Positions 18,657 through 57,412 are shown, counted from the first letter of the stretch. The stretch: 64,000 nt of DNA from an uncultured Hyphomicrobiales bacterium (GCA_964637845.1 CAZWXI010000002.1:28667-92666), one strand, 5' to 3'. The notes: generated by a model from the sequence alone, not told the origin. Program-made: numbers and translations.

Positions 18657-18704
18657 ATAATAAAATATTAGAAATATGAATAAAGTTTTTGGAGGTTTAA
18701 TCTC

Positions 18705-29042: not shown

Positions 29043-30039
29043 AAATGTCTCTATTTAATGAGTTAGTCAATATCAAATTAAGAAAAACGGGCATCCATAG
29101 TCTGAGTTCTATCAAATATCCCCCAACAAAGCATACTAAGAAATAGGGCAAAGAAAACAGTAAACTATAAATCGCTATATTTGTTTGCATTTGAGAATTG
29201 AGCCTTGAAATCAACAAAAAACAAACTCCTACAAGAAATGTCAAACCAGCATAATTATATATACTGAATAGATTTGATACTACCGTTACTTCTTGAATGG
29301 TGGATTGTTCGAAACCAAGTATGAGTCTTAGTAGAAAATAAGTAATCAACCAAACGCATATACTTATTATTAAATCTCGTTGAGTATTTCTATCATGAAA
29401 TTTTCCACTTGCGATTATTATCGCACCGTGTACAGCTAATATCAATGCGGAGGATTCGCGATTAGTAGTAGCGATAATCAGTATGATTAAATAGGTAAAA
29501 AAGGAATGGTTATTAGCTTTCTTTAAATGTCGAATCAAAAAATTAACAGCAAGTATGTGCAAAAAATAAGATATGTTGTCGTATGGTACCACTACGAATT
29601 GCGTGATAGCTAATAATGAGTTATAAATCAAGATTTCATTGACTGGGTGTGAGTTATCGCGACTATCATTAGTTTTAGAAATGAAATACAATAAACCTAT
29701 TGATGAAAGCACCGTAAAAATAGTATTAAGCATGAAGTATGACATATATACATGCGATTCAGCTTCGAAAGTATTTGTTATTACGTGGATTTTTTGGACG
29801 GTGTCAAAATCAGCCCTAAAATCTCTCAGCAATTCAAACAAAAATATCATTAAGTATTTGCTCAAAATACGATACTTGTATATGCCTGATTCATACTGCT
29901 CGATATAGCCTGCTTCCGTGAAGCTTCCACTTGTATATGCAGTTGTAAAATAAAAACTGATAATTATTTGAAAAATCAACGGTATGACAATACATAAAGT
30001 CGCAAAAATCAGAATTTTTCTGATTATGTGCATCTTCAT
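29029..30039 (-). CDS. Polytopic integral membrane protein of unknown function (336 aa)
   Basis: About nine hydrophobic helices by eye. The start overlaps the stop of the upstream S8 peptidase gene (ATGA at 30036-30039). No motif recognised. Confidence 0.5.
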   Translation of the reverse strand: MKMHIIRKILIFATLCIVIPLIFQIIISFYFTTAYTSGSFTEAGYIEQYESGIYKYRILSKYLMIFLFELLRDFRADFDTVQKIHVITNTFEAESHVYMSYFMLNTIFTVLSSIGLLYFISKTNDSRDNSHPVNEILIYNSLLAITQFVVVPYDNISYFLHILAVNFLIRHLKKANNHSFFTYLIILIIATTNRESSALILAVHGAIIIASGKFHDRNTQRDLIISICVWLITYFLLRLILGFEQSTIQEVTVVSNLFSIYNYAGLTFLVGVCFLLISRLNSQMQTNIAIYSLLFSLPYFLVCFVGGYLIELRLWMPVFLNLILTNSLNRDIFTVN

Positions 30040-33000: not shown

Positions 33001-34385
33001 ACATCCCATCCCTCTGCACCTGTATCTGTTGCGGTTGCTGTCAATATTCCATGAATCTCTTCAGGTTTGAGAGTGGGGTCGATTTCAAATAGCATTGCTA
33101 CTACTGCGGAAACATGAGGTGCGGCTATTGATGTACCTGAAACCAAAGCGTATTTAGCACCTGTTACTGTTGTCATTACTTGCTCTCCGGGAGCAGTCAA
33201 ATCAGTAAATGATCCGTAATTGCTTCTGCCGTATCTGCCTCCGCTCGAATTCGTTCCGCCAATATTAATTACCTCGGGATATATTGAAGGGTAATGTTCT
33301 CCGAACCAACCCGTATTCCCAGCTGATGTAATCATAACGCACCCAGCCGCATAAGCGAACTTTATTGCGTCGTACATAATTGGTGATTCATATCTTTCAC
33401 CAAAACTAAAATTCAATACTTTTGCTCCATTCATAACTGCATAGACTATCGCTTTGGCTATATCATCGGCTTCGGCGTTTCCCGATATGTCAAATGCTTT
33501 TGATGTCAACACCTTTGCCCCCGGTGCTACTGATGCAATACCGATATTATTGTTTGTTGTGGCTGAAATCACGCCCGATACACTAGTTCCATGGTCACCT
33601 TCGTCCTCTGGAATAGGGTCGGGGTCACGATAATCACCAAAGTTGACCACGTCTTGGTCAACGAAATCAAATCCGATTACATCGTCAATAAATCCGTTAC
33701 CATCATTGTCAATGCCGTCCAAATCTCCCGAAACGCCGTTTCTGATTTCTTTGGCGTTCCAAGCGTCAAACCTACCGTTACCGTTGATGTCTTCGGCTGT
33801 ATTTATCCACAATCCGCCGATTAGGTCTGGATGCTCGAAATCAATTCCGGTGTCAATTACACCTACTATGACTCCCTTGCCTGTGGCTTTTTCCCATGCT
33901 TTTAATGCGTTTACCTGCTTCAAATTCCATTGTGTATCAAATAATGAGTCATTCGTGCGGTTGCTTCTATTAATTTTATATATGTGATTTGGTGTTATGT
34001 TGACAAATGATATATCGTTTTCAAACAATTTTTGAAGACTGTCAATCTCTAAATCTGATTTTATTTCGTAATAATTTCCAAGCATATCCAAACGTATAAG
34101 TGCATCACGGCTTAAAAACTGCGATGAGGATTTGTTTGTGCTAAGTGTGCTCTCTGAAAATACATTATGGACTTGAATATTCAATTCGTTTATGAAAGTC
34201 TTTTGCTTTAAATCGCCCATGTACTTGAGAATGTAGCTTTTATTAGCTTGGGAGTAAGCACTTATCGAGAAAAAAGACGAAATCAAATGTGCGGATAAAA
34301 TTAATACTATACTTTTATTCAGTTGACTTAACATCATTACCTTTAAAATAATTGAGTGCCAATACATAGACGTAATGGCACTCAA
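30036..34385 (-). CDS. Secreted subtilisin-like (S8) serine peptidase with FG-GAP/VCBS calcium-loop repeats, Fn3-like and Ig-like domains and a T9SS C-terminal sorting domain
   Basis: Triad contexts VGVIDTGIDFEHPDL, HGTSVSGVISA, GTSIAAPHVSA. Six D.DGDG-type loops (GDSNGDGIPEI, FDLDGTGKANL, GDLDGDGNTEL, ADIEGDGVKEI, GDLDGDPGDEI, ADIDGNGMNEL). FlgD-Ig-like tail VEWDGRDKIGNLVPPGIYTYEV. The likely true start is an internal Met before the signal peptide MLSQLNKSIVLILSAHLISSFFSISAYSQA (about 34334). Confidence 0.85.
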   Translation of the reverse strand: MSAITSMYWHSIILKVMMLSQLNKSIVLILSAHLISSFFSISAYSQANKSYILKYMGDLKQKTFINELNIQVHNVFSESTLSTNKSSSQFLSRDALIRLDMLGNYYEIKSDLEIDSLQKLFENDISFVNITPNHIYKINRSNRTNDSLFDTQWNLKQVNALKAWEKATGKGVIVGVIDTGIDFEHPDLIGGLWINTAEDINGNGRFDAWNAKEIRNGVSGDLDGIDNDGNGFIDDVIGFDFVDQDVVNFGDYRDPDPIPEDEGDHGTSVSGVISATTNNNIGIASVAPGAKVLTSKAFDISGNAEADDIAKAIVYAVMNGAKVLNFSFGERYESPIMYDAIKFAYAAGCVMITSAGNTGWFGEHYPSIYPEVINIGGTNSSGGRYGRSNYGSFTDLTAPGEQVMTTVTGAKYALVSGTSIAAPHVSAVVAMLFEIDPTLKPEEIHGILTATATDTGAEGWDVFYGAGILDAYEAVNYAGASVFSISQPLNEAEFFVRRTPSIDILGSVATPLFDSYKLKIGKGVLPESWLESDVYQNQVINAKLGTVDISELTSGKYIISLEVTLKNKKTIERRITINISNEADSARFEYFNIVHAFSNDKRIILMAAKTNKKGTMTVKYKSEVDEDYHFLKQSRHKSQFHIVEITDVRPGLKYAGIATVMTNGGDLVSHRFSFEIENDVWTTSNFDPKPYAIHRAYINNNYHDLYGDGKPVFVVNDLSSLNIGTTKVYQYQNGELKLRDTSAAAWIPVGMGDSNGDGIPEIFATAQFNSVAEQGNFRGDSPFAKQIFRNQPGTTLWGEQIFDLDGTGKANLIGYRYEVQNRHYIAYEYANGEYRVKTTAELPNNLFNVPITRGSAIGDLDGDGNTELCIVNTNSNVMIYEYRDGKFTLEWADSSKRSNSNQFLTSADIEGDGVKEIIHMFAESEVLFSNNEAPSNIWTARVLKSDGFNNYKEIWKEHFYGVKQGFVRTLFGYRNGVAAGDLDGDPGDEIVFSPFPNLYVYKYNKKTKTFDKFWWYPATLSNSALIADIDGNGMNELGFSTFNSMRFFEYRKDFAGPRVPTNFRGEAVTDTRGKLTWDKMPDAEEYLIYQLVRTDNGIDAILIAESDSNELIIDDMTPNSEYEFVMRSYNSKLKDNFSDFTDITSIITVAPAKFISIINVASNSLKVAFSGFLPHNYIPAGVFLLYDNNNYIATSSSSITQYDSTVIITFSEDFEIDVEYKLVINSFRDRFGNLVSKDSANFRFSEGVLPDEIFLVKLQFLAPTLLELEYSEPVENGTASNRDNYVMRPFGEVLYAERSITDSTKVLLNISQSLREKGARGFDYTISAYNVISSEGKPITKGAGNTLGFVISADDLRDTYVFPHPIVLSEEPKIFFANLTNYATVKIMSLDGVEIISLQENNGNGGVEWDGRDKIGNLVPPGIYTYEVSGANSDGREVFTRKNKFVVLP

Positions 34386-42811: not shown

Positions 42812-44530
42812 TTAATTAGCTTTGGTTGATAAAACAGGGGATTCCAAAATCGGCGGTTTTGCTTGAGACTTCTGTTTTTTTTGAACTTCTATCGTGCTTA
42901 CAAGCAAGCTCGGAGAGCATGCAGATACAGGGACGCCACCTGATTCCGCACCACAAATACCATTGAAAATGCTCATGTCATCTGCGGTCGCCAATATGTT
43001 AGAAAATGTAGTAAGTGGTGTGCCGATTAAATCTACTCCGCGTACAAGCTCATCGGGTCTGCCGTCTGCATAAACTTTATATACTACAAGTGGCGTAACG
43101 TTGAATGCGTTCGGTATTGTTCTCGCCGTAAATGTAAATCCACCCGATACTTCACCGAACAATAAACCATACTCTTTGTCTTGCTTTTTGATTTCTTCCC
43201 GCAACATTTCTCGCAACTTTGCTTGCGATACAGTTTTTGTCGAAGCTACAATCATGTTAGATTGTCTTGAAACAACCTGGAAACCTTGCTGTCTCCTTCC
43301 GTGGCCATTCGAGTTTGCGAAACCCTCAATCGGCGAACGCGACATCAAAAAGTTACTGAAAACACCGTTTGCAACAGTTACAACTCTTTCGCCTTTTATT
43401 CCTTCGTCATCAAATTTGTAATATCCTGAGAGAGGTACACCGTTTAGTACATTTTTTGTAGGGTCGAATGTTACACTTATGAAATCTGGAAGAATCTTTC
43501 TGCCAACTGAACGCTTAAAAGTTTGGCTCGAATTGGGATCCTTTTCACGATGACCTTCAACACGGTGCCCGAATATTTCATGGAAAAAGACACCTGCGGC
43601 TTCTCCCGTCAAAATTGCTGGACCGGTAAAAGTTTCTGCCATTGGCGCATTGCGTAGTTCATTCAGCAAACGCATCATCTCATCAATATCAGCTAAAATT
43701 TGATTTCTACTTGGCAGTTCATCGGCAGTGAAAGCAAAATAGCTCCGATATAAAGGCAATGTCATACCGTCGTCAGCTTTTGTATAGGCATTTACAAAAA
43801 TTCTGGCAGATGTCTCCGACCAATTTAATTTGCTGCCTTCGGTATTTACAAAATACTTATGCTTTATTTCAGTATTTAATCTTACAGATGAGCCGTAAAT
43901 ATATGGATGACTGCTAAATGCTGAGGATAATTCCCTAATTACGTTAGCCCATTTTGCGGTATCTAATTCAAATGACTGTTTCGGCCCCGAGTAAATTATA
44001 GGTTTTTCTCTCGAAAAATCAGCCGATGTATCCTCTTCGGCAACTTTTACCGCTTTATTGGTAATAGCTTTCTCGTATCTTTCGCTTGCGGCTTTGTATC
44101 TTCGATCGGTTGCGAACCATATCATTTTTCTAAGAGCTTCTTCGTCACTTTCTAGCGGCAGTGAAACTAAACCTCCGCCGCTACCGAAATTGAGCGGATT
44201 TCCGCGAATTATATGTGTATTGTCGAATTGATAATCACCCACGCGTAAATCTATATCTAAAACTCTCGTACGGTTTCGAGCATTAGTCAATATTTTGCCG
44301 AAAACCGCTACTATTGTATGATTATCAACATCAGTCACATTATATGAAATGAAGTAAGGAGGAAATTCCTGGTACTTCAGTTCATTCATGCTTCTTACTA
44401 ATTCTGTTTGCATAGCTTTGAATAGGGTGTCATCGGCATAACTTACATTAGCTGCCATGCTCATAAAAGCTATTAATGAAAGAATTTTCTTCATTTTGAA
44501 ATCCAAATTATTTAATTTAATTTTGTTCAT
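42812..44530 (-). CDS. TldD-like zinc metallopeptidase with signal peptide
   Basis: FFHEIFGHRVEGHRE (HExxxH plus downstream His, as in TldD). Signal peptide MKKILSLIAFMSMAANVSYA if the start is ATG 44494; the track start at 44530 would overlap the upstream gene by 14 nt. Confidence 0.8.
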   Translation of the reverse strand: MNKIKLNNLDFKMKKILSLIAFMSMAANVSYADDTLFKAMQTELVRSMNELKYQEFPPYFISYNVTDVDNHTIVAVFGKILTNARNRTRVLDIDLRVGDYQFDNTHIIRGNPLNFGSGGGLVSLPLESDEEALRKMIWFATDRRYKAASERYEKAITNKAVKVAEEDTSADFSREKPIIYSGPKQSFELDTAKWANVIRELSSAFSSHPYIYGSSVRLNTEIKHKYFVNTEGSKLNWSETSARIFVNAYTKADDGMTLPLYRSYFAFTADELPSRNQILADIDEMMRLLNELRNAPMAETFTGPAILTGEAAGVFFHEIFGHRVEGHREKDPNSSQTFKRSVGRKILPDFISVTFDPTKNVLNGVPLSGYYKFDDEGIKGERVVTVANGVFSNFLMSRSPIEGFANSNGHGRRQQGFQVVSRQSNMIVASTKTVSQAKLREMLREEIKKQDKEYGLLFGEVSGGFTFTARTIPNAFNVTPLVVYKVYADGRPDELVRGVDLIGTPLTTFSNILATADDMSIFNGICGAESGGVPVSACSPSLLVSTIEVQKKQKSQAKPPILESPVLSTKAN

Positions 44531-46610
44531 TTTTTGTTACTCGCTGAACGAACATTTCTGTTATTGCCATCAGTAATGCAAGTATTAAGAATAGCTGCCA
44601 AAGTTCAGTTCCTATTCTTGCTTTATATAGTCCTTCGCTTAAATTATCAATATCATCAATTATCGATAAACGATTCTCGGCAAATCTTGCTGATACTTTC
44701 TCTTTGATTTTATTGACTTCAGCGCCGCCTATTTCAGATTCGGTGCTATTATGATTGACGGATAATTGTGTAATAAAGTTACCTTTCTCATCAAAAATCT
44801 GATATAAACCCTTTAGGGTTAAATTATCCAGTGATACAAAACTCCCCGATGGCAGAATTACTGCTTCTCTGAAAAATTCATTATCCTGAGGGTCAATAAT
44901 TCTGAACCTGCTTGTACCTATAAACCGCTTAGGAATGATTATGTTGACAGGCTCTCCGATTGACGCTTCAATGGCTTTATCCGATGATGATGTCAGAAGT
45001 ATGGTTGCACGATGAATTAATGGGGGAAATATCCCGACATATGGGAAATCGCTCCATTGAGTATTTGGTGTAACCGAAAAATAAAAAAGTTTCCCATCGC
45101 CCAATTCATTTTCTACGAGAAATACCCCATCAGTAGATTTTATTATAGTTCTACCACCGTCAACTTTTACGGAGCGATATATTTTAGGTGATTCTATCGA
45201 GCGTGATAAGTCTTCGTCGCGTTTGAATACATTTTCGAAGATAGGGTGCTCGGTCTCAACGATGGTGAATTTGCCGGGTGCATTACTTTCGAACCTTATT
45301 TCATTTGCTGAGCCAAGTCCCAATTTATTTGTAAAGTAACTCATATCAGCTATTTCCGCGGTATTTACAGGGAAAATAATAGCAGTACCGCCATTCTCAA
45401 TATATTGAACCGTTCTATCCAGATTATTTCGTAAATAATCACCTCCCGCTAATATAACTAAATCATAAGATGGTAGGTTCTGCGATGCATATAGTTGAGG
45501 TGCTACAACAGTCAAATTAATTTCATTGTTTGCATCGGACGCTTTTATGACATTTTCAATAAAAAATACGTCAGATTGCTCGCCGGACAACAAAATTCTT
45601 GGTGATTCAGGGATGTTAAAACCGAAATAATATGAATTGTCAAAATCCAAGGCGTCATTTTCGGTAACAACAACACCTTTAACAGGTCCTCGCGACTGCG
45701 GGGGTGCGGCTATTGTGGCGTTAATCGAACTGTTTGCAGGGATATCAATTGCACGTTGAGCAACTCTTTGCTCGTTAAATAACATGCTGATTACGGCTCC
45801 TTTTATATCAGAGTTTGAACTGTTTCGTATAACGGCTTCTATTTCAATGGGGCGATTGGGAATGAAAATACTACTCAAAACATTTAGCGAGTCAATACTT
45901 AGATTATTTAATGAGACCTTAGAATTCGTGCCGATTGGTACCAAAAAAGCATTTATTGCAGGGTCTTTGATTTTTATTGAATCATATTCCGGGGTTTCAA
46001 ATACATTTGATTGAAAATCCGAAATAATAAAAATCTCTTTGTTAAGATTTTTTGCGTCGTCCATGATGATTTGAGCGAACTTCAAGCTATTATTTAAGTT
46101 TGCAGGCATAGAGCTAATCTGCATTCCGGATAATGTAGATTCGATAAGTTCGCGGCTTGTGGCAAATCTGTTTAACAAATCGAATTGATTCCCGGTCATT
46201 TCTATAAGTGCTATCTCGTCACCTTCGTTCAAATTGTCGAGTATTTTACGGACGGAATTTTTGGCTTGATTTAATCTGTTTCCGAACTCATCGGAAACTT
46301 CCATACTGTAGGAATTATCCACGATTATAACTATGCTGGACTTGGCATAAGATTCAAAAAATGGAAATGAACCTTGTATCGTAGGCCTAGCAAAAGCTAA
46401 GACCACAAATACTATCAGTAAAGTTCTCAGAATAAGCAATAGAATCTGCTTTAACTTTAATTTTCGAATTTTTGTCTTTTGAAGCTCTTTGATAAATTTA
46501 AGAGTAGAGAACTCAACGGTTTTAAGCTTTCTCAGGTTGAGCAGATGCAATAATACTGGGATCCCGGCGGCTACAAGTCCGATTAGTATTAAAGGATTTA
46601 AAAAATTCAT
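44517..46610 (-). CDS. BatA-type membrane protein: N-terminal double-TM domain, vWA domain, large extracytoplasmic region, C-terminal TM
   Basis: MNFLNPLILIGLVAAGIPVLLHLLNLRK is the characteristic aerotolerance-type N-terminal double-TM opening. vWA MIDAS context IVIIVDNSYSM. C-terminal helix LWQLFLILALLMAITEMFV. Confidence 0.7.
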   Translation of the reverse strand: MNFLNPLILIGLVAAGIPVLLHLLNLRKLKTVEFSTLKFIKELQKTKIRKLKLKQILLLILRTLLIVFVVLAFARPTIQGSFPFFESYAKSSIVIIVDNSYSMEVSDEFGNRLNQAKNSVRKILDNLNEGDEIALIEMTGNQFDLLNRFATSRELIESTLSGMQISSMPANLNNSLKFAQIIMDDAKNLNKEIFIISDFQSNVFETPEYDSIKIKDPAINAFLVPIGTNSKVSLNNLSIDSLNVLSSIFIPNRPIEIEAVIRNSSNSDIKGAVISMLFNEQRVAQRAIDIPANSSINATIAAPPQSRGPVKGVVVTENDALDFDNSYYFGFNIPESPRILLSGEQSDVFFIENVIKASDANNEINLTVVAPQLYASQNLPSYDLVILAGGDYLRNNLDRTVQYIENGGTAIIFPVNTAEIADMSYFTNKLGLGSANEIRFESNAPGKFTIVETEHPIFENVFKRDEDLSRSIESPKIYRSVKVDGGRTIIKSTDGVFLVENELGDGKLFYFSVTPNTQWSDFPYVGIFPPLIHRATILLTSSSDKAIEASIGEPVNIIIPKRFIGTSRFRIIDPQDNEFFREAVILPSGSFVSLDNLTLKGLYQIFDEKGNFITQLSVNHNSTESEIGGAEVNKIKEKVSARFAENRLSIIDDIDNLSEGLYKARIGTELWQLFLILALLMAITEMFVQRVTKNEQN

Positions 46611-47853: not shown

Positions 47854-50634
47854 TTATCTTCCGAAGAATGGTCTGCCATCAGTGATCCAACTTGGTGCGG
47901 GTTTGCTTAATACGTAATGGTCGAACCATTCTTTCATTTTTATTTGCCAATCAAGTCTGTTTTGATACTTACGTGGATGATGCATCTCTTTTGTATATTC
48001 TACCAATACGCAGGGTTTTTCTAATCGGCGTAATGCCAAATACAACTCCACACCTTGCGAGAAAGGTATTGCTTCATCCTCAGCGCCATGCAGTATAAGT
48101 AGTGGTGTGTTAATGTTTCGAGCCAAAAAAACGGGAGAATTATTCAAATAATTATCGAGCGAATCCCACAAGTTTCCTCCTATCCGGCTTTGAAACTTTT
48201 CATATTGGAACTGACGTGCCAGACCGGTTTCAGTACGGATTTGACTGTATGCACTTGTCATATTACCGACAGGCGCCCCCGCCGCAGCGGCTTTGAAAAT
48301 ATCTGTCTGAGTAACCACGAAAGCAGTTTGATAGCCCGCCCAAGAATGACCTTGCAGGCACAACCTATCCGGATCAGCAATTCCACGGTCGAGCAATACT
48401 TTTAACCCTGATAATATGGCATCTACTGCGTCATATCCTGGGCGCCCTGTTTTATAAACTACATCAGGCACAAATACTAAATAATCATCTGACAAATAGA
48501 GTTGGTAAATTGGTCGGTGATTAATACGTGGCTGATAGAATGTAAAAGTCCGATGTGAAAAACGCTCATAATAATAGACCAAAACAGGATACTTTTTCTT
48601 CGGGTTAAAGTTATCAGGTTTTATGATGTAACCGTCCAAAGAATCCCCCAGCGGTGTTACCCATCTTACTATTTCAGTCGTACCCCATTTCATTTCTCGC
48701 ATTTCGGGGTTAATATCTGTAATTTTTATGGGGTTGGCAAACAAGACATTATCGGTAAACCACAAATCCGGAAATTCTTCAAAACTTTCCCGAGTATATA
48801 TAAATTTGTTATTTTTAGACCTACCGATTAATTGAAATGTTTTGCCTTCTATAAGTCCACCACCGCTTTCCGTAAAAACGTTCAGTCCGCCGGCTATTTG
48901 CTCTTCGAAAAATAAAATGTTAGTGCACTTGAGAGAGTCTGAGTACACATGAACATAAAAGGTATCCTTAAGCATTATTACCTTCTTGTCACGCTCAACA
49001 TTTGCATACCGGAACTGCAATTTATTTCTGCGCCCAACCGTAGCCGACATATTAATAAATGAGCCGGGGTCATTAGGAAAAAACTTATAAAAATCATATT
49101 TTTCGTTAATCAGCACATACATATCATTCTCAAACCAAGCCCCAATTCCATAACTTCCGGACTCAGCAGGAATATCGTTATCAACATCATAAAAAGGGAT
49201 AGGTATATTTTGCGTCATATTACCCGTCGTGCCTTTTTGTGTGTCATAAACGTACCAATGCTTTTCCTGGAAGAACAGCACATATTTACCTTGTGGTGAT
49301 AAATTTGCTCCTTCAGCTAACTTGGTAGCTATTTGCTTTTTTTGTCCCGTAGTCAAGTCAAATACGTATAAATCGTTATACCAACCATCATAGGTCATTA
49401 ACTTGAGATAAGGTGTGTTGTCATATCCAATCGTAAATCTTGAATTATCCGAAGCAATGACATTATTGCATGTAGAATCAGCTAATTGGAAGAATCTCTT
49501 TGTACGTATATTATACATTGATGCGAAGGTGCGGTCTTTGTTTTTATTCCACCAATTGATTTGATTGGAACTTATCAGAGGGTCGTTCCAGTGCCAAATT
49601 ACATCATCTGATTTTTCCAAAATTGTATCAATATTGTAGAAATTATCTTCCTTGAATGTAATCGTAGGAGCTTCGCTCGTGTCTTTTTCGCCGATAGGTT
49701 TTAATCCGAAAAATAAAATAGTTCCATCTTCTGTCCATTTTGTATCGTTTTTATAAGGTATAAACCAACCGCGGGGTGCTGTCTGTGGCGTTAAGGCAAT
49801 TTGAGTTTGTGCGGCTCGAACTTCCTCCCAAATCATCAAAGTACCATCGTTCGGAACACCCTCCTTTGTCATTGTGGAAGATACATACCCGAGTGTACGC
49901 GAGTTTGGACTCCACGCAATTGCTGAATACAAAGTTTTCTCTACTTTATTTATGGCGAACTCCGGTGCAAATGCTTCCCAAAGTTTTCTTGCATAAAGTC
50001 CATCTCTTTCCCCGTCAGGCGATGAAATCGAATAAAATACATATCGGGATGCACTATCCAAAGCATATTCAAGCACATAGTCTATTCTAATTTCAGTCTG
50101 TGAAAATAAGTGCCTAATGACCAATTCGGAGCCAATGGGTTTCTTCTGCATTTTTTCGGCTTTTTCGTCATCTTTTCCGAATTTATGATACACAAGCCAC
50201 TTCGAGTCTTCAGAAAAGACAAACTCTTTGACATCTTTTCTGCGGTCAATGTCGCCCGTAGTGGTTTTAACAATGACCAAACCCGATTTAGGTCTATCCT
50301 TGGGTGTCTTGGCATTTTCTACTTCAATTGAGGGCGGCGCCCAAGTGAAAGCGCAATAAACTCCGTCACGCGAAAATTTCGGACGCATTCCGCGTTCAAT
50401 TTCATACTTTGTTGAATCATCGGTTGATATAATATATCCAACCCCATCACCTCTGTCCGGAATAGCACTATAAGCTACCCAATTGCCGTCATCACTAATT
50501 ACGGCACCCTGTATAGAGCGGAATTTCATAGCATCAACTAGTGTAAACGGTCGTTTGGAATAAGATAATTGGGTTGATAATAAAATAACCAGCAAGTATA
50601 ATGCAATTTTCTGCGAGATGTTAAATTTTGCCAT
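47854..50634 (-). CDS. S9-family serine peptidase (prolyl oligopeptidase / DPP-type) with N-terminal beta-propeller
   Basis: Nucleophile elbow LQGHSWAGYQTA, LILHGAEDEAIP (Asp region), EMHHP (His region). Start placed at ATG 50634 (MAKFNISQKIALYLLVILL signal) rather than the track TTG at 50664. Confidence 0.85.
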   Translation of the reverse strand: MAKFNISQKIALYLLVILLSTQLSYSKRPFTLVDAMKFRSIQGAVISDDGNWVAYSAIPDRGDGVGYIISTDDSTKYEIERGMRPKFSRDGVYCAFTWAPPSIEVENAKTPKDRPKSGLVIVKTTTGDIDRRKDVKEFVFSEDSKWLVYHKFGKDDEKAEKMQKKPIGSELVIRHLFSQTEIRIDYVLEYALDSASRYVFYSISSPDGERDGLYARKLWEAFAPEFAINKVEKTLYSAIAWSPNSRTLGYVSSTMTKEGVPNDGTLMIWEEVRAAQTQIALTPQTAPRGWFIPYKNDTKWTEDGTILFFGLKPIGEKDTSEAPTITFKEDNFYNIDTILEKSDDVIWHWNDPLISSNQINWWNKNKDRTFASMYNIRTKRFFQLADSTCNNVIASDNSRFTIGYDNTPYLKLMTYDGWYNDLYVFDLTTGQKKQIATKLAEGANLSPQGKYVLFFQEKHWYVYDTQKGTTGNMTQNIPIPFYDVDNDIPAESGSYGIGAWFENDMYVLINEKYDFYKFFPNDPGSFINMSATVGRRNKLQFRYANVERDKKVIMLKDTFYVHVYSDSLKCTNILFFEEQIAGGLNVFTESGGGLIEGKTFQLIGRSKNNKFIYTRESFEEFPDLWFTDNVLFANPIKITDINPEMREMKWGTTEIVRWVTPLGDSLDGYIIKPDNFNPKKKYPVLVYYYERFSHRTFTFYQPRINHRPIYQLYLSDDYLVFVPDVVYKTGRPGYDAVDAILSGLKVLLDRGIADPDRLCLQGHSWAGYQTAFVVTQTDIFKAAAAGAPVGNMTSAYSQIRTETGLARQFQYEKFQSRIGGNLWDSLDNYLNNSPVFLARNINTPLLILHGAEDEAIPFSQGVELYLALRRLEKPCVLVEYTKEMHHPRKYQNRLDWQIKMKEWFDHYVLSKPAPSWITDGRPFFGR

Positions 50635-50743
50635 ATCAAAACCAAAAAATATATAATAAATCAAAATTCGTTACAAAACAAACTTTAAAGTAAGAGCAAA
50701 TCAAAAGATTTCCAAATTTTAATAGATAATTCGTTTAAAAATT

Positions 50744-50778
50744 TTTGATAAAATAATTAGATTTTTTTATTACTTTTG
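50744..50778 (+). promoter_or_regulatory. Candidate Bacteroidota-style promoter (-33 TTTG, -7 TAnnTTTG) for the riboswitch operon
   Basis: TTTG at 50744-50747 and TACTTTTG at 50771-50778, just upstream of the riboswitch. The 23-nt spacer is longer than the 19-21 nt described for Bacteroides, so the call is tentative. Confidence 0.25.
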
Positions 50779-50789
50779 TATTGTTATTG

Positions 50790-50955
50790 GATTGATAGTA
50801 TTTGATACTGCGGAAACAGGTGCGATTCCTGTGCGGTTACGCCGCTGTAACGGAGGACGATGCAGCCATAGTCAACAGACAGTCACTGCTTTAAGCGGGA
50901 AGGCAGGTTGCAAAGGATGATTCCGAAGCCAGAAGACGGGTCCGATAATGCTCAT
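50790..50955 (+). promoter_or_regulatory. Cobalamin (B12) riboswitch aptamer; boundaries approximate
   Basis: GGAAACAGGTGCGATTCCTGTGCGGTTACGCCGCTGTAACGG (50812-50853) parallels E. coli btuB leader AGGGAAUCCAGUGCGAAUCUGGAGCUGACGCGCAGCGGUAAGG. AGTCACTGCTTTAAGCGGGAAGGCAGG (50881-50907) parallels ACACUGCC...GGUGGGAAGUC. The B12-box-like GAAGCCAGAAGACGGG (50925-50940) parallels AAGCCCGAAGACCUGCC. It is a GC-rich island in an AT-rich 410-nt gap, upstream of a TonB-dependent receptor operon. Confidence 0.85.
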
Positions 50956-51074
50956 TGAAGTGAATTTAAGCACAGCGTTTGCGTCAACAAACGTAATGAG
51001 AAATTGGTCTAAAGCTCCAAGTTGCCTGCCAATTCCTCATACAAAAGTTTTTATAATATTTCATAGGAGATACT

Positions 51075-53435
51075 ATGCATAGAATATCTTACTTAATAAC
51101 GAGTGCTATACTTTTCGTATTTGTCACTCTCCCTCTTGATGCTCAACAGTACTTACCCCATGACTCGCTGTATGTCGGTAACACTCCAGTCCACATCGTC
51201 AAATCGCCAAATGATGGTACGCTCCACGTATTTTGTGCCGGATTTGATGAGAATTACAACGGGCAATTTGATGAAGGCGACGAATATCCTTCATGGTGGG
51301 TTATCAATAAAACTGAGCAATTCGGCGAGTTTCTTTTTGAAACTGAAAAGAAGCTTAGCTTCGATAAATTTTTCAGATTTCCGTCAGGTGTGGAAGTTTT
51401 TCGTCCTGGATTCAATTGGCGAGATAATGTCATATATATTCCTTTCCAAGGTCATATCAGAGCGTATGACCTTATGAAATTTGAATTAATTGACGAAGAA
51501 GTAGCTCGTATTGATGCTACTTCAATTGACTTTGCAGGGGGTCACTTACTTATTACGGTTTCACCCGGCGCCAATGAAAAAGGTAGGTTAGACGTGCTCA
51601 ATGTTAGTTCAGGGCAAATTTTACAAACTATACCTGCTGATATAAATGTGATGCAATGTGTATATTATCCTTCACCCAAAGGCATCTCGATTGCTTTACT
51701 TTCGAATGGCGAATATGGTGAATCAAACGGTAAAGTACAATACGGAGCCATTAACCATATGTCAGATTTTACTCTTGACTACGAAGTCATTGTAGGCTCA
51801 AATCCAAACCACATGATTTTCAAAAACGGAAAATTATACGTGTCGGTAAATGGGGACCACAAAGTTGTCGAAATAGACGTCGAGACTCATGAAATAAGAA
51901 CTTTCTACCTTGGTACCGTTGCTTTTAATGGTCCAAGAGAATTATATGTTGATGGGAATTACCTTTATGTGGCAACATACACCGGCGATTTCCGCAAAAT
52001 TAACCTTGAAACAGGTTGTATTGATATGATTGCAAGCTTTTCAGATTATAAAGCCGAAAGCATTTTGACTTATGACAATTATCTTATTGGACTTTATTCT
52101 TATGACGCTATGTATGGTGCTTCCAATACAGTTGTAGTTTTTGAATATACTGATGAAGATGTTTTTGAAGGTGCTTTGCGCTCCGTAGCAGTTGGTGCAC
52201 GCCCGATTAGTTCTTACTTTGATGAAATCTCTTCACTATACCATGTGTTTTGTTTGGGACATGACACAGAACAACCCTCATGGTGGACTATTGATATGGA
52301 AGGTAAATCAACCCAAAGATTCAATTTTCCCGCAGATGAACTGAAATATCCTTTAAAACCCGCTTTTGATTGGCAAAACAGAACAATATACATTCCACAC
52401 AGAAATAAAATTACATCGTATAATCTTGATGATTTTACAACTGACGACCCGAGCGTTGCTAATATTGATGCCGTAGCTCTTGACTTTGCGGGTAGCCATT
52501 TACTAGTTGCGACTCGTAAGGATGGTGCGGATTCAATCATTGTTTTAAATACTCAGTCAGGAGGTGTTCTCCAAAGAGTTTATGCAGGTATGCACGTAAG
52601 AGATTTAAAATACTACTCAATGCTTGTTGAGGATAATCCGCAGCCGGTAATCAGTTTGGCAATTCTTACAGATAAAGACGAAACAAGCGGTGAAACCCAA
52701 TTACTTTACGGCCCCATAAAGCATATGAAAGATTTCACACTTGACTTTTCTGTTGACGCCGGTAGAGATGCAAGTCATTTGGTACATTCATTCTTGAATA
52801 ACTCACTTTTCACGGTGTCCGAAACTGACCATGATTTATACCATATTTTACTTCATGATAATTCAGTTCAAGTGACACCAACAGGTACTTATGGTAATAT
52901 TTATCCGAAAAAATTATTCAGTCTTTTTGATGTTTTGTTGCTACCTACTTATAACGGTGACATTCGCAGCTATTCTATAGATGAAGTATTTGGGCAGTTT
53001 TTCTTGGAGGATATTGTATTATTGCCATATAAAATTGAAGAAGTGCATATGGCTGCAATTAATATGATGCCCATTGCTGCTTTATTTACTACACCATATC
53101 ATGCTGATGGCTCTATATCAAACGAGGTTTTGTTTTTGAACATGTCTGGTATGTCGGTTCATGAAAAATCTACAACGTCAAAGGATTTGATATATCCTAA
53201 CCCGACAAGCGGCAACTTTACTATAGTGTTAAAAGACAATAAATATAATTTGTCGAATTTGAGAATAGATGTTTTCAATCAATTCGGACAATTCATATTC
53301 ACTGAATTTTACTCCGTGAGCAATAATGTTATTAATATACAACTACCAGCTGACAAGATTCCAACAGGTGTGTATTATTTGACTATATCAGACGGAAACA
53401 CCAGTAGAACACAAACGCTGAACGTGATTAAATAG
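51075..53435 (+). CDS. Secreted protein with two tandem ~340-aa propeller-like modules and a T9SS C-terminal sorting domain (first gene of the B12-riboswitch operon)
   Basis: AGGAGA RBS at 51065-51070. Signal peptide ILFVFVTLPLDAQQ. Internal duplication (see findings). C-terminus LIYPNPTSGNFTIVL...IPTGVYYLTISDGNTSRTQTLNVIK is Por_Secre_tail-like. Confidence 0.7.
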   Translation: MHRISYLITSAILFVFVTLPLDAQQYLPHDSLYVGNTPVHIVKSPNDGTLHVFCAGFDENYNGQFDEGDEYPSWWVINKTEQFGEFLFETEKKLSFDKFFRFPSGVEVFRPGFNWRDNVIYIPFQGHIRAYDLMKFELIDEEVARIDATSIDFAGGHLLITVSPGANEKGRLDVLNVSSGQILQTIPADINVMQCVYYPSPKGISIALLSNGEYGESNGKVQYGAINHMSDFTLDYEVIVGSNPNHMIFKNGKLYVSVNGDHKVVEIDVETHEIRTFYLGTVAFNGPRELYVDGNYLYVATYTGDFRKINLETGCIDMIASFSDYKAESILTYDNYLIGLYSYDAMYGASNTVVVFEYTDEDVFEGALRSVAVGARPISSYFDEISSLYHVFCLGHDTEQPSWWTIDMEGKSTQRFNFPADELKYPLKPAFDWQNRTIYIPHRNKITSYNLDDFTTDDPSVANIDAVALDFAGSHLLVATRKDGADSIIVLNTQSGGVLQRVYAGMHVRDLKYYSMLVEDNPQPVISLAILTDKDETSGETQLLYGPIKHMKDFTLDFSVDAGRDASHLVHSFLNNSLFTVSETDHDLYHILLHDNSVQVTPTGTYGNIYPKKLFSLFDVLLLPTYNGDIRSYSIDEVFGQFFLEDIVLLPYKIEEVHMAAINMMPIAALFTTPYHADGSISNEVLFLNMSGMSVHEKSTTSKDLIYPNPTSGNFTIVLKDNKYNLSNLRIDVFNQFGQFIFTEFYSVSNNVINIQLPADKIPTGVYYLTISDGNTSRTQTLNVIK

Positions 53436-53436
53436 G

Positions 53437-55425
53437 TTGAAGTATATGAACTGCATCGCAGCATCTCAAAACAAATTTGAGGAACTCATAGCCATCATGA
53501 TTTTTGCGTCTATGCAGTTTGCATTTACAAATATATCTCTTTCCTTTAACGAAGCCGATAGTGCGTATTTTAGACTGCCGGAGCTAACAGTTACTGCCGG
53601 AAAAAAGCTTTCTATGCCAGAAATGAACTACACCGGCAATACAATTATTGATAAATCAAAAATTGAAGCTATAAACCCTATCACATGGGATGAACTCTTT
53701 CGCTTAAGTCCGACTGCTGTAATCAAGGACTACGGTGGTATGGTGGGCATGAAAACTATTTCTTTGCGGGGTAGTTTAGCGGCGCAAACTCTCATAACTC
53801 TTAACGGAACGAGAATTAACTCATCACAAAATGGAATAATTGACTTAACTTCATTGCCCATTGCCCTGCTAAGCGAAATTCAAATTGTTCGCGGCGGATT
53901 ATCCGCAATCCACGGAAGCAGCGCTCTTGGTGGTGTAGTCAATATAATTACTGATAGAAAGTTATCGGGGGTAAAGTTGACTCCCAACATCGGAAGTTAT
54001 GGAGACAAAGTTGTCAGCTTGGCGGGAGCATTAGTCGAAAATAATTACAATGTATCAACATTTTTTGAATATAAAGCATCGGACGGCAGTTATCCAATTA
54101 ATGTTAGCCAATATGGCGATCGTTACACCTATAAGCGGGAAAATGCAGACTTCAAAATACTGTCATTTGGAGCAAATGCTCAATACTATGCTTCGACAAA
54201 AGATATATTTCACTTAAACTTTATATCCACATTTACTGAAAAAGGAGTTCCGGGTGCAGTTTTACAGGGCAATCTCGAATCCCTGACTGCACGAAGTAAC
54301 GATATGTATTCATTATTGAAATTTGATTATTTCAAGGTAATGTCATCAAAATCATCTTTCAAAACATCTCTACATTATCGCTATAGCGAAAACCATTATG
54401 TTGATAAAGTTTACGTTCCGATTAATTATGCAGGGGATTCACATTTTTACTCGAATGATTTTAATGTTACAAATCATTTTGATTTCAGTCTTAAAGATTT
54501 TCATTTTCGTCTTTCAAACGAGCTATTTTACTCAATGTTAACGGGTGACATGCTTGATAAATCTCTTGGAGGAATAGTATCTCGCTACGGGGCTTCATTT
54601 TCTGTTTCGGCTGATACCCGTCAAATATTTGATAAATTTGATTTCTTCATCGCTTCTCGAATTGATTTTTTCAATAAGCACGAAAGTTCCGTTTCCCCCT
54701 ATTTAGGGTTCAATTATTCAGTTTTCGAGGGCATACTTGAATTTCCGGCCAGCATATCCTACAATTTCCGCATACCTTCATTTAATGAGTTGTATTATCT
54801 GAACTACGGCAATTCAAATCTCAAGCCCGAGAAATCTATTTCATTCAATGTCGGAATGAATTTTTTGCCGGTTTCAAATCTTAGTGCCAAAGTGAATCTA
54901 TTTATGATTCAAACCCAAGATTTGATTTTGTCTGTACCTAAAACACCGTTGTTGTGGAGTGCACAAAATGTAGGAATTGCCCAATCTTGCGGGTTTGAGT
55001 TTGAAGCCGGCGGTTCTTTTTGGGAAGATGAATTGAACTTATCAATAGCATATACACGTATGGATGTTAGAGATAAGGAATTAAACTCTCCCAATTACAA
55101 CAAACTTCTGCCTTATTTTCCACAAGAGACTATAGGTATATTCATATTGTTCAAGCTATACGATTTCAATTTCATTCAGAAACTTAACTATAATTCTTTT
55201 ACATATTCTCTCAGGAGCAATGACATCAATTCAGTGGTTGCCCCTTACTCAACATTTGATGTTGCTGTTTCAAAGGTATTCAAATTCGGAAGTTTTACTT
55301 TATATCCGCGATTTGATATTATCAATTTATTTGATGAAAGATTCGCAATTATCAAAAACTATCCAATGCCCGGAAGAATGTTTAGATTTTCGGTTAATGT
55401 GATTTACGGAGAAATGACAAAATGA
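53437..55425 (+). CDS. TonB-dependent outer-membrane receptor, BtuB-like
   Basis: TonB-box-like LPELTVTAGKK (compare E. coli BtuB DTLVVTA). Plug domain ISLRGSLAAQTLITLNGTRIN...IQIVRGGLSAIHGSSALGGVVNIIT. Beta-barrel with terminal RMFRFSVNVIY. Riboswitch upstream. Start uncertain (TTG 53437, ATG 53446 or a later Met). Confidence 0.85.
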   Translation: MKYMNCIAASQNKFEELIAIMIFASMQFAFTNISLSFNEADSAYFRLPELTVTAGKKLSMPEMNYTGNTIIDKSKIEAINPITWDELFRLSPTAVIKDYGGMVGMKTISLRGSLAAQTLITLNGTRINSSQNGIIDLTSLPIALLSEIQIVRGGLSAIHGSSALGGVVNIITDRKLSGVKLTPNIGSYGDKVVSLAGALVENNYNVSTFFEYKASDGSYPINVSQYGDRYTYKRENADFKILSFGANAQYYASTKDIFHLNFISTFTEKGVPGAVLQGNLESLTARSNDMYSLLKFDYFKVMSSKSSFKTSLHYRYSENHYVDKVYVPINYAGDSHFYSNDFNVTNHFDFSLKDFHFRLSNELFYSMLTGDMLDKSLGGIVSRYGASFSVSADTRQIFDKFDFFIASRIDFFNKHESSVSPYLGFNYSVFEGILEFPASISYNFRIPSFNELYYLNYGNSNLKPEKSISFNVGMNFLPVSNLSAKVNLFMIQTQDLILSVPKTPLLWSAQNVGIAQSCGFEFEAGGSFWEDELNLSIAYTRMDVRDKELNSPNYNKLLPYFPQETIGIFILFKLYDFNFIQKLNYNSFTYSLRSNDINSVVAPYSTFDVAVSKVFKFGSFTLYPRFDIINLFDERFAIIKNYPMPGRMFRFSVNVIYGEMTK

Positions 55426-56324
55426 GACTTGTCGTAATATTTCTGCTTTTTTCATTTTCGATTTATGCAAATGAATATCAACAAGGGTTTATAGATACTG
55501 TTTATAGCTTTACGCCCGGAAAATATATTGATAATCCTAATTACAACGATTATTATCCACAGAATATCTTCGGACCACCATCAATCAAAGCAACATTACA
55601 AGTACCGGCTTCTTCGATGGCAGATGTGTTGCCAATCGGATTTGAAGGTGAAATCATTGTCGGTTTCAAGGGCAAGGCACTCATGAATGGTCACGGATAC
55701 GATTTTATTATATTCGAAAATCCATTCATTAATCCAATAAATAAAGGTATTTTTGCTGAACCAGGTATAGTCTCTGTCAGTCAAGACGGTATAAATTTTA
55801 TTGAATTTCCATACGCTCCTAATACTTTGGAAGGCTTGGCAGGTTTAACTCCCGTGAATGGTAGCCGAGACCCTTTCGTTCATCCTGCTTGCGGTGGAGA
55901 TGCTTTTGATTTGGAAATTCTGGGATTATCATTTGTTACACATATCAAAATTAAAGATACTACAAAAATTGTTTTATCTTTACACAAAGACAATAAATAT
56001 TATAATCCTGAGCATATTCTTTCGGGTTTTGATTTAGATGCTGTATCGGCAAGATATTTAGTGGATATTTCAAGTGTGGGTGCCGGAAGTAATGAATCTA
56101 AATTACAAATTCGGCAATTTACAGATAATCTACAAATTGTTTCAAGTTGTAGTGACTGCAATTACCAGATTTCAATATATAATATTTGCGGGGTAGAAGT
56201 ATTCGATGATTTTATTCGAACCAATCAATTTATCAACTTGAATAAATTTCCTAAAGGAACATATTTCTACAAAGCCCTTGATAGTTTCGGTAAAATTGTC
56301 CTAACGGATAAGTTCATAAAATGA
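55422..56324 (+). CDS. Secreted protein of unknown function with T9SS C-terminal sorting domain
   Basis: Signal peptide MRLVVIFLLFSFSIYA, a ~200-aa beta-rich domain (YSFTPGKY...IFGPP, GYDFIIFENPF, VSVSQDGINFIEFPY, GGDAFDLE), and a C-terminal ~70 aa sorting-domain-like tail (ISIYNICGVEVF...FPKGTYFYKALDSFGKIVLTDKFIK). ATGA overlaps on both sides. Confidence 0.6.
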   Translation: MRLVVIFLLFSFSIYANEYQQGFIDTVYSFTPGKYIDNPNYNDYYPQNIFGPPSIKATLQVPASSMADVLPIGFEGEIIVGFKGKALMNGHGYDFIIFENPFINPINKGIFAEPGIVSVSQDGINFIEFPYAPNTLEGLAGLTPVNGSRDPFVHPACGGDAFDLEILGLSFVTHIKIKDTTKIVLSLHKDNKYYNPEHILSGFDLDAVSARYLVDISSVGAGSNESKLQIRQFTDNLQIVSSCSDCNYQISIYNICGVEVFDDFIRTNQFINLNKFPKGTYFYKALDSFGKIVLTDKFIK

Positions 56325-57412
56325 AATTCCGTTTATTAAACATATCGATATTGATTGTATGCTTGGGCTGCATACGTACTCCAAACGAACCCGAGAGAAT
56401 TTATGCAATCAACATCAAAATTGGCGATATCTTGATATTATGCGAGGGATTGCAAGGATATGACAATTCAGCAATTTCTTATATTAATTCTGCAACGGGG
56501 AAGTGCATAACCGAAGCATACAGCCATGTTAACAAGGGCATAAGATTAGGCGATACTGCTAACGACATGGTGCCGTTCAATGATACGCTTTACGTTTGTT
56601 CAACAATTGGAAATTTTATTGAGATTATTGATATCAAATCACTTAGAACTATACGTCGAATCGAACTATCTCCAAATTCTGCTCCAAGAAATTTAGTTGT
56701 TGACAGTAGTTTTATATATTGTACTTTACTCTACGAAAGCTCTCTTTTAGTCATAAATAAATTTACCAATGAACTAAAGCTCATCCCAACCGGACCTCAA
56801 CCCGAGGGACTTGCTCTATTGCCGGAGAACATTGTCATTACGGCTAATTCGGCTTATGGCGATTTCAATGCTCATCATCTCTATGCAGGTACAATATCGA
56901 TTATTGATTTGCAATATTATTCAGAAATCAAGAAAATTTACATAGGTCCAAATGTTTGTGAAGTTCTATTTAATCCAAAGAATAATAGAGTTTATGCCGT
57001 ATATTACAATCTGCCATCAAAACCGAATTCATTAGGTGGAATTGTTGAACTATCGTATCCGGATTTTACAATATTAAGAAAATGGTACTGCCAACCATTT
57101 AGGGTGAATCTTTCATTTAATGGTGATTCTCTGTATTTCATATCACAAAAGCGAAGCGATTTGAAAAATACTGAAGCAGCAATATCATTTATTGATTTAC
57201 AATCCGGGACGCATGGCGTTTACCAATTATTCAAGGAAAACGACATATATTATGCTTTAACTGTCTCACCATTCGATGGAAGTATCTGGGTCGGAAATGC
57301 TCTAAACCATCAAACTAACGGATATATTTTCAAAGTTAACCCCAATGGTCCTTCTGTTGAAATCAAATTCGATGTATCGCTAAATCCTAACAGGATTGTT
57401 TTTGTCAGGTGA
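56321..57412 (+). CDS. YncE-like beta-propeller lipoprotein (candidate surface corrinoid-binding partner of the receptor)
   Basis: Lipobox ILIVCLGC. Repeated blade-like units (LYVCSTIGNFIEIIDI, IYCTLLYESSLLVINK, PEGLALL..NIVITANS, GTISIIDL, NRVYAVYY, SLYFISQ, SIWVGNA). Last gene of the riboswitch operon. Confidence 0.6.
   Translation: MKFRLLNISILIVCLGCIRTPNEPERIYAINIKIGDILILCEGLQGYDNSAISYINSATGKCITEAYSHVNKGIRLGDTANDMVPFNDTLYVCSTIGNFIEIIDIKSLRTIRRIELSPNSAPRNLVVDSSFIYCTLLYESSLLVINKFTNELKLIPTGPQPEGLALLPENIVITANSAYGDFNAHHLYAGTISIIDLQYYSEIKKIYIGPNVCEVLFNPKNNRVYAVYYNLPSKPNSLGGIVELSYPDFTILRKWYCQPFRVNLSFNGDSLYFISQKRSDLKNTEAAISFIDLQSGTHGVYQLFKENDIYYALTVSPFDGSIWVGNALNHQTNGYIFKVNPNGPSVEIKFDVSLNPNRIVFVR

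Follow-up and report, generated by a model that had tools for sequence, protein, structure and literature searches.

What does a cobalamin (B12) riboswitch control when the genes behind it encode a TonB-dependent receptor alongside proteins that carry sorting signals for the type IX secretion system (T9SS)? The question is raised by a four-gene locus at positions 50,744 to 57,412 of a 64,000-nucleotide stretch of DNA deposited as an uncultured Hyphomicrobiales bacterium (GCA_964637845.1, CAZWXI010000002.1:28667-92666; hereafter the window, with positions counted from its first nucleotide). A first-pass annotation of the sequence had proposed that this locus is an undescribed corrinoid-capture system. 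Here we report that the riboswitch precedes an operon for a tandem propeller related to BtuG (P1), a divergent BtuB-type receptor (P2), a probable relative of BtuH (P3) and a predicted BtuG-family lipoprotein (P4), and that the same arrangement recurs across related genomes. We put the probability at about 75% that the locus is a B12-repressed BtuBG-type corrinoid capture operon whose extra binders are T9SS cargo.

A cobalamin riboswitch precedes four tightly packed genes

We searched the window with cmscan against Rfam and found a complete cobalamin riboswitch aptamer (RF00174, model positions 1-189 of 189) at 50772-50959 on the plus strand (75.1 bits; gathering score, 31.5; E=1.1e-16), with its B12 box at about 50925-50943. 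The segments originally named as a cobalamin aptamer core, including the B12 box at 50925-50940, fall inside this significant match. It is the sole riboswitch that Rfam detects in the 64-kb window, and aptamer homologues stand at the same position in 34 related loci.

The four genes follow on the same strand: P1 at 51075-53435, ending in a TAG stop; P2 at 53437-55425, opening with TTG at 53437 (a putative start and the first possible one); P3 at 55422-56324; and P4, the last gene of the operon, at 56321-57412. A single nucleotide separates the stop of P1 from the TTG of P2, and ATGA overlaps join P2 to P3 (55422-55425) and P3 to P4 (56321-56324), so the junctions of this tightly packed set of open reading frames (ORFs) are as first described.

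The expression platform between aptamer and P1 (50960-51074, plus strand) contains a Shine-Dalgarno (SD)-like AGGAG at 51065-51069 and a hairpin at about 51007-51043 with an A/U-rich tract behind it; a search of the window's leader for intrinsic-terminator-like sites was negative. Among 35 related leaders, terminator-like hairpins occur in 9 and are therefore not conserved, and inspection shows a purine-rich SD-like tract shortly 5' of the ATG in most. Because a canonical or conserved terminator is missing and the SD-like tract is common, these leaders favor translational control without proving it, and control is probably exerted at translation initiation of the first gene, P1. A sigma-70-like promoter, TTGCCA-18-TATAAT at 50628-50657 on the plus strand, departs from the consensus at one position of 12 in a simple scan and is given as a candidate only, since such sites are no commoner in this region than in shuffled sequence.

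P2 and P4 resemble the BtuB-BtuG pair of Bacteroides

P2 has the domains of a TonB-dependent receptor, with Pfam matches to Plug (PF07715, 50.5 bits) and TonB_dep_Rec_b-barrel (PF00593, 101.7 bits), and a TonB-box-like ELTVTAG at amino acids (aa) 49-55. Its top ten matches among solved structures (PDB) are all BtuB proteins: B. thetaiotaomicron BtuB1 ranks first (8blw_A, E=1.3e-32, aligned over aa 45-658), BtuB2 and BtuB3 come next and E. coli BtuB follows. Domains, motif and structure matches thus agree with its initial description as a BtuB-like TonB-dependent receptor with a TonB box and plug. The best NCBIfam models, TIGR01779 (TonB-B12) and NF007926, reach 144.4 bits against a cutoff of 599.7 and 115.9 bits against 836, respectively. 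Since P2 lies under the BtuB equivalog cutoffs and yet matches BtuB, we regard it as a divergent BtuB-type receptor.

The same shortfall (144 bits versus 600 and 116 versus 836) could also be expected of a receptor that imports something other than a corrinoid, such as cobalt, nickel or another tetrapyrrole, with the riboswitch merely coupling its expression to B12 status; B12 riboswitches in some bacteria do control cobalt transporters as well. We consider this highly improbable, because the ten top structures are BtuB, the match to BtuB1 is full length, and the partner P4 is assigned to the BtuG family, which is known solely as a corrinoid binder.

P4 is predicted to be a seven-bladed propeller lipoprotein of this BtuG (DUF5074) family. 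It matches DUF5074 (PF16819) with 36.8 bits against a threshold of 27.2 and aligns at full length with structures of BtuG1 (8blw_B and 8ptf, E=3e-20; 3.3e-20 for 8blw_B over aa 35-361) and BtuG2 (8bmx and 8bn0, E=1.5e-11 for 8bmx_D), and also end to end with 3dsm and BtuG3. Its signal is of the lipoprotein type, ending LIVCLGC(17)IRTP with Cys17 as the predicted lipidated residue. By inspection, a Cys-ending lipoprotein-type signal is present in nearly all 39 P4 homologues encoded in operons, usually followed by [VI]xxP, and a lipobox pattern flags 32 of the 39. P4 had been called a YncE-like lipoprotein. The lipoprotein signal stands, but the YncE identity does not: P4 reaches 14.6 bits with the YncE model NF052280, whose cutoff is 400, and the PDB entry 3vgz_A gives E=1.7, whereas the structure matches and DUF5074 identify a BtuG homologue.

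Eleven residues of BtuG2 are in contact with adenosylcobalamin (AdoCbl): E55, F58, Q93, N107, S131, S195, Y196, Q219, Y239, Y316 and Y335 (PMC13616437). When these positions were mapped onto P4 by hand from the structure-match alignment, three were identical (E42, Y188, Y311), three were conservative (N81, N211, H330) and five differed.

P1 is predicted to fuse two BtuG-related propellers

P1 begins with a signal peptidase I (SPI)-type signal peptide, continues with propellers at about aa 25-360 and 368-690 and ends in a T9SS type-A C-terminal domain (CTD) at aa 706-781, where PF18962 scores 40.2 bits against 27 and TIGR04183 scores 35.3 bits. An internal duplication relates aa 31-312 to aa 375-647 (31% identity, E=6e-41), and the AlphaFold2 (AF2) model, with a predicted local distance difference test (pLDDT) score of 84, has 28 strands per half, as two seven-bladed propellers would, followed by the sorting domain. 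Duplication, PF18962 and model concur with the proposal of a secreted tandem propeller-like protein with a T9SS sorting domain. Lipoprotein anchoring is not its route, as it has an SPI-type signal and a C-terminal CTD instead.

A whole-chain Foldseek search of P1 returns tandem propellers as best matches, but these are generic double propellers and of limited use. A family profile built from 20 homologues matches the structures of BtuG1, BtuG2 and BtuG3 with E=5e-15 to 1e-10 (5e-15 to 3e-12 for 8ptf, 8blw_B, 8bmy and 3dsm), and hhalign aligns P1 with the operons' own BtuG-like family at 98% probability (E=3e-13, 303 columns), with alternative registers spanning both halves. By these alignments and the structure model, P1 is predicted to consist of two BtuG-related seven-bladed propellers fused in one chain. 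The best full-length BtuG alignment falls on about aa 198-524 and crosses the duplication boundary; the blades may therefore be circularly permuted relative to BtuG, or the register may slip between blades.

BtuG-face motifs are kept in repeat 1 of P1 (N211, Y214, N245, N259 and G286-P287-R288), and N245, H262, G286 and P287 are near-invariant in the P1 family. The second propeller lacks these motifs and, like BtuK2, may be a non-binder.

P3 probably carries a distant relative of the BtuH domain

P3 is composed of an SPI signal (..SIYA/NEY), a beta-sandwich domain of about 205 aa and a T9SS sorting domain at about aa 230-300, and it is not a lipoprotein given its SPI signal and CTD. In its AF2 model (pLDDT 92.7) the beta-sandwich domain is followed by a seven-strand sandwich CTD at aa 228-299. 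The tail is borderline when taken alone (TIGR04183, 23.8 bits against 23; PF18962, 25.3 bits against 27), but the sorting domain is supported at the family level because 59 of 81 family members match PF18962 and the family profile matches the CTD structure 8glk_D (E=2e-6).

No Pfam domain covers the N-terminal 205 aa of the P3 family. Against the PDB, the family profile matches BtuG1 in its H-domain (8blw_B aa 433-497, E=1.9e-4) and BtuH2 (7biz_A, E=0.43); apart from CTDs these are the only matches that make biological sense or have E<0.1, and they are the only two proteins of solved structure with a BtuH B12-binding domain. When run on a Bacteroides B12 locus (contig L005), the profile picked exactly BtuH1 and the BtuG1 H-domain out of 231 six-frame ORFs. 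An hhalign comparison of the P3 family with these two gave a probability of 92.6% (E=4.5e-7), though the alignment is confined to a core of 48 columns; the BtuH1 and BtuG1 H-domain queries were stitched from frameshifted ORFs of the same contig, so their sequences are approximate. A 65-aa piece of the BtuG1 H-domain searched against a large protein database returned six short fragments only.

Motifs of P3 run collinear with those of BtuH: PxxGQ; slG-gG-I-V-f; G-DF-I-x-N-x-F; EPGiV-VS-D; YYP; and FDLD. Of the metal and corrin-site residues of BtuH2 (N399, F401, E406, Q333/F334, Y475/H476, Y510, D522 and S582/E584), the first three lie in the GN-x-F...EPG motif (PMC13616437) and are the ones for which P3 shows matches. 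These are N100, F102 and E113, which vary little or not at all across the family, N100 and E113 being invariant; counterparts of the other site residues are uncertain. Foldseek lists 8blw_B for P3 with probability 1.0 and a query template-modelling score (TMq) of 0.33, the highest query score there. Together these comparisons suggest that the P3 N-domain is probably a distant homologue of the BtuH B12-binding domain, and B12 binding by P3 is plausible. Of the previous label for P3, a 300-aa unknown secreted protein with a T9SS sorting domain, the sorting domain holds while "unknown" gives way to the BtuH-domain relatives that the profile finds.

P3 was also considered as a BtuJ (DUF4465) protein and rejected, since PF14717 has no match in P3 or in any of the 81 family members even at E<=1; the same model matches none of the four operon proteins. 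Separately, aa 76-129 of P3 match the NCBIfam model NF033170, "LIC_13355 family lipoprotein" of Leptospira, with E=2.7e-10, below its cutoff and over the same core motif, which hints at BtuH-like domains in spirochaetes. A word-indexed search found 231 proteins of the P3 family, which are about 300 aa long, and at least 221 species-representative genomes encode relatives.

The operon is conserved under the riboswitch

We assembled 84 loci, of which 80 were found with the P3 profile, 3 came from exact look-ups and one is the window itself, and annotated them with purpose-built profiles and, for the aptamers, a covariance model made from four aptamers. The order riboswitch, propeller-CTD gene, BtuB gene, BtuH-like-CTD gene and BtuG-lipoprotein gene occurs in about 37 other species-level genomes. 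A BtuB-like gene lies directly 5' of the P3 homologue in 48 of the 84 loci. Among these 48, a P1-like gene lies 5' of btuB in 37 of the 40 with room upstream, and a BtuG-like gene lies downstream in 35 of the 43 with room. Of 41 P1-like ORFs, 39 carry a CTD; all 39 BtuG-like ORFs lack one. In every P1-like/BtuB/P3-like locus with enough upstream sequence (35/35), the riboswitch lies immediately ahead of the first gene and in the same orientation, and in the four such loci with no riboswitch match the contig ends there. The four families thus co-occur beside B12 riboswitches, a point the first-pass annotation had singled out for checking.

P1-like genes encode either a single propeller of about 450 aa or a double propeller of about 790 aa, and an exhaustive search at E<=1e-30 yields about 201 clusters of P1-like proteins at 50% identity in the same two size classes. 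Three loci (L070, 2-4599; L077, 150-5023; L082, 319-5080) have two consecutive double-propeller-CTD genes of about 790 aa before btuB, and hence four BtuG-like propellers besides the BtuG lipoprotein. All 80 loci found with the P3 profile come from metagenome-assembled genomes (MAGs), and the carriers bear the labels Kapaibacteria, Ignavibacteria, Chlorobiota (including Chloroherpeton) and Bacteroidota. The closest relatives of the window are Ignavibacteriae HGW-1 and Kapaibacteria, and the "Hyphomicrobiales" labels on several carriers are clearly pipeline errors.

This synteny bears on whether P1 and P3 bind corrinoids at all. They could be T9SS surface proteins that merely share the operon's regulation and serve a structural, shielding or other purpose, leaving uptake to P2 and P4 only. 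Such a role would have a parallel in BtuK2, a DUF5074-type propeller of a Bacteroides B12 operon that binds no B12 (PMC13616437), and would accord with the degenerate BtuG-face motifs in the second propeller of P1, the limited P3-BtuH similarity and the existence of P3-family members beyond B12 operons. However, in about 37 species the P1-like and P3-like genes show strict synteny with btuB behind a B12 riboswitch, the face motifs of P1 repeat 1 are conserved, and the GN-x-F...EPG motif of P3 is invariant at N100 and E113, which makes it unlikely in our judgement that neither protein binds.

The P3 family as a whole is not specific to B12: 27 of the 84 loci have no adjacent BtuB-like gene, and no cobalamin riboswitch was found in nine non-riboswitch P3-family loci scanned with Rfam. 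These paralogues indicate that the domain family is broader than B12 uptake and that only certain clades are tied to the riboswitch. One other conserved cluster has, in order, a P3-like gene, an unrelated 406-aa propeller (PF13570-like), a TonB receptor of about 770 aa with CarboxypepD_reg and Plug domains, and DUF4249 (L062, 6983-12361; L050, 7001-12403; also L058, L061, L066 and L073). Its P3-like members are monophyletic, and Rfam finds no cobalamin riboswitch in the four of its loci that were scanned. Further P3-family genes stand alone. A sub-clade (L013, 4143-7891; L016; L022) has BtuB-like and P3-like genes only, with neither a propeller-CTD gene nor BtuG; its scanned member, L013, shows no riboswitch, and just 54 nucleotides (nt) precede a 304-aa ORF there that has no Pfam match.

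Two other riboswitches were seen in the collected loci. In L003, a thiamine pyrophosphate (TPP) riboswitch (2317-2411, minus strand, 75.6 bits) precedes a TonB-dependent receptor gene divergent from the B12 operon, which suggests a region for vitamin uptake in which a B1 and a B12 receptor are encoded back to back. In L027, a P3-family gene that stands alone is followed, about 1.2 kb further downstream, by a fluoride riboswitch (9093-9153, plus strand), which is probably unrelated.

A model for capture outside the cell

With CTDs on P1 and P3 and a lipoprotein signal on P4, the receptor has three extracytoplasmic partners, as had been put forward. The sortase PorU and a PorV-family shuttle are encoded in the same window at 14622-19814 on the plus strand, and NCBIfam models confirm both earlier assignments (NF033707, 839.6 bits against 420; NF033709, 269.4 bits against 90). 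We infer from the sorting signals that P1 and P3 are their substrates in trans.

The BtuG of B. thetaiotaomicron sits stably on BtuB as a lid, captures corrinoid and, when the lid closes, frees it into the barrel; BtuH is a surface protein that binds B12, and the lipoproteins BtuH, BtuJ and BtuK serve as additional surface binders (PMC10404256, PMC13616437). By analogy, low intracellular cobalamin would cause the riboswitch to keep the leader open, allowing expression of the four genes. P2 would form the TonB-powered channel and P4 would cap it as a lid, capturing corrinoid with very high affinity and releasing it into the barrel upon closing. P1 and P3 would exit via Sec and then the T9SS, be cleaved by PorU at their CTDs, and be attached to the surface or released, to act outside as extra corrinoid catchers that hand their ligand to the BtuG-BtuB core, as has been proposed for BtuH, BtuJ and BtuK in B. 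thetaiotaomicron.

Whether P1 and P3 would stay at the surface or leave it separates two versions of this scheme. P1, P3 or both may be released after PorU cleavage as soluble, high-affinity "cobalaminophores" that dock back on BtuG-BtuB. Both proteins have type-A CTDs (TIGR04183), and many type-A T9SS cargo proteins of Flavobacterium are released in soluble form; P1 also stands first after the riboswitch and is sometimes duplicated (L070, L077, L082). In Bacteroides, vesicles carry Btu binders off the cell, so remote capture has precedent (PMC13616437). Sequence does not distinguish anchored from released cargo. Type-A cargo of Porphyromonas is typically attached to anionic lipopolysaccharide, and we know of no docking interface for released P1 or P3. 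We hold release to be doubtful, though less so than a non-binding role for P1 and P3, and equally tentative is the wider proposal that released P1 and P3 would be a protein-based B12 counterpart of hemophores in environmental Ignavibacteriota, Kapaibacteria and Chlorobiota.

Returning to our reading of the locus as a BtuBG-type capture operon with T9SS-borne binders, several observations count against it. P2 falls well under the NCBIfam equivalog cutoffs for BtuB, five of the eleven BtuG2 contacts are absent from P4, and the BtuG-face motifs are lost in the second propeller of P1. The likeness of P3 to BtuH is weak: its significant core spans 48 columns, the BtuH domain exceeds P3 in length by about 50-70 aa, the counterparts of BtuH2 Y475, H476 and Y510 are uncertain, and whole-chain Foldseek ranks GH2-type jelly-roll-plus-immunoglobulin (Ig) proteins equal to BtuG1, with matching E-values. 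Among P3-family loci, the 27 of 84 with no adjacent BtuB-like gene include paralogues outside B12 operons. Finally, btuFCD is not among the window's ORFs of at least 200 aa, and the inner-membrane step has no candidate nearby.

Genomic surroundings

Upstream, a 410-nt gap (50665-51074) separates P1 from a divergent S9-peptidase gene (47854-50664, minus strand). This gap is among the longest in the window, but the assertion that it is the only long non-coding gap goes beyond what is strictly shown, because no ORF of 60 aa or more lies at about 704-1279 either. Downstream of P4 are a convergent M50B-peptidase gene and then uvrB. The 3' end of P4 overlaps that of the M50B-peptidase gene by 33 nt (57380-57412), and no terminator-like site was found between the two 3' ends.

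As previously noted, btuFCD, cob and cbi genes are absent, in that none is present among the window's ORFs of at least 200 aa. One ORF (44517-46610) was considered as a cob gene on account of a weak "cobaltochelatase" match and rejected, as it encodes a BatA/vWA protein. The window also encodes two very large subtilisin-like proteases, one of 1124 aa (10999-14373, plus strand) and one of 1449 aa (30036-34385, minus strand); the former bears a T9SS sorting domain, and its gene is the immediate upstream neighbour of porU/porV.

Significance and comparison with known systems

Competition for corrinoids shapes microbial communities, and an extracellular multi-protein B12 relay has so far been worked out only in gut Bacteroides, where all its components are lipoproteins and the T9SS is absent. 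Free-living relatives appear to build such a relay from BtuG and BtuH modules and to send two of its proteins through the T9SS. If this is true, the BtuBG paradigm reaches past the gut and past Bacteroidota sensu stricto, the T9SS acquires a role in vitamin capture, and one may ask whether bacteria secrete soluble B12-scavenging proteins. The model also supplies a functional hypothesis for two protein families: the "hypothetical T9SS protein" family of about 300 aa, present in at least 221 species genomes, and the propeller-CTD family of about 450 or 790 aa, with about 200 clusters at 50% identity.

What is new in the locus is the predicted T9SS export of two partners, the two-propeller fusion and the compact BtuH-like domain; the binding modules themselves have already been described. 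The original suggestion of an undescribed system therefore holds for the export route and the architecture but not for the binding modules, which belong to the BtuG and BtuH families. A full-text literature search, whose coverage left out many subscription papers, found no paper tying Btu accessory proteins to the T9SS, and the published DUF4465 survey does not mention the T9SS.

The closest known counterpart is BtuB-BtuG of B. thetaiotaomicron (loci 1-3; 8BLW, 8BM0, 8P97/8P98). Both systems have a cobalamin riboswitch, a BtuB transporter and a DUF5074 propeller lipoprotein, P2 being nearest to BtuB1 and P4 to the G-domain of BtuG1, and the pedal-bin lid mechanism of BtuB-BtuG is expected here by analogy. 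Unlike the BtuB-BtuG loci, the operon has no btuFCD, its other binders carry T9SS CTDs in place of lipoprotein signals, and its hosts are environmental MAGs resembling Ignavibacteriota and Kapaibacteria, as opposed to gut Bacteroides.

P3 compares with the BtuH family (BtuH1, BT1488; BtuH2, BT1956/7BIZ; and the H-domain of BtuG1, BT1490) in its shared motifs and in being operonic with btuB. It differs in its shorter domain (about 205 aa versus about 250-270), in having an SPI signal and a CTD where BtuH has a lipoprotein anchor, and in lacking a PKD stalk; the similarity is statistically solid over only about 50-60 residues. P1 compares with BtuK1 and BtuK2 (BT1486/BT1487), which are encoded in B12 locus 1 by tandem genes for PKD plus DUF5074-type propellers and likewise add BtuG-like propellers to the one that forms the lid. 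One BtuK copy binds B12 and the other does not, and the two P1 propellers are similarly unequal in motif conservation. Unlike the BtuK proteins, P1 joins both propellers in one chain, has no PKD domain and ends in a T9SS CTD; BtuK1 (9S6C) is not among the best 60 PDB matches of the P1 profile.

Two more distant systems share parts of this logic. In E. coli, the TonB receptor gene yncD likewise stands beside a gene for a seven-bladed propeller, yncE. P4 is not YncE by model, although PDB depositors name BtuG entries "YncE family protein", and YncE is periplasmic and is not known to bind B12. In Porphyromonas, HBP35, the gingipain HA2 domains and HmuY provide T9SS-delivered or secreted heme capture that feeds TonB receptors. 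There too a tetrapyrrole is caught outside the cell and handed to a TonB receptor, and some of the catchers are T9SS cargo, but the ligand is heme, the folds are unrelated and no riboswitch is involved. Judged by its sequence relationships, the locus described here would be the Bacteroides BtuBG/BtuH relay rebuilt with T9SS cargo.

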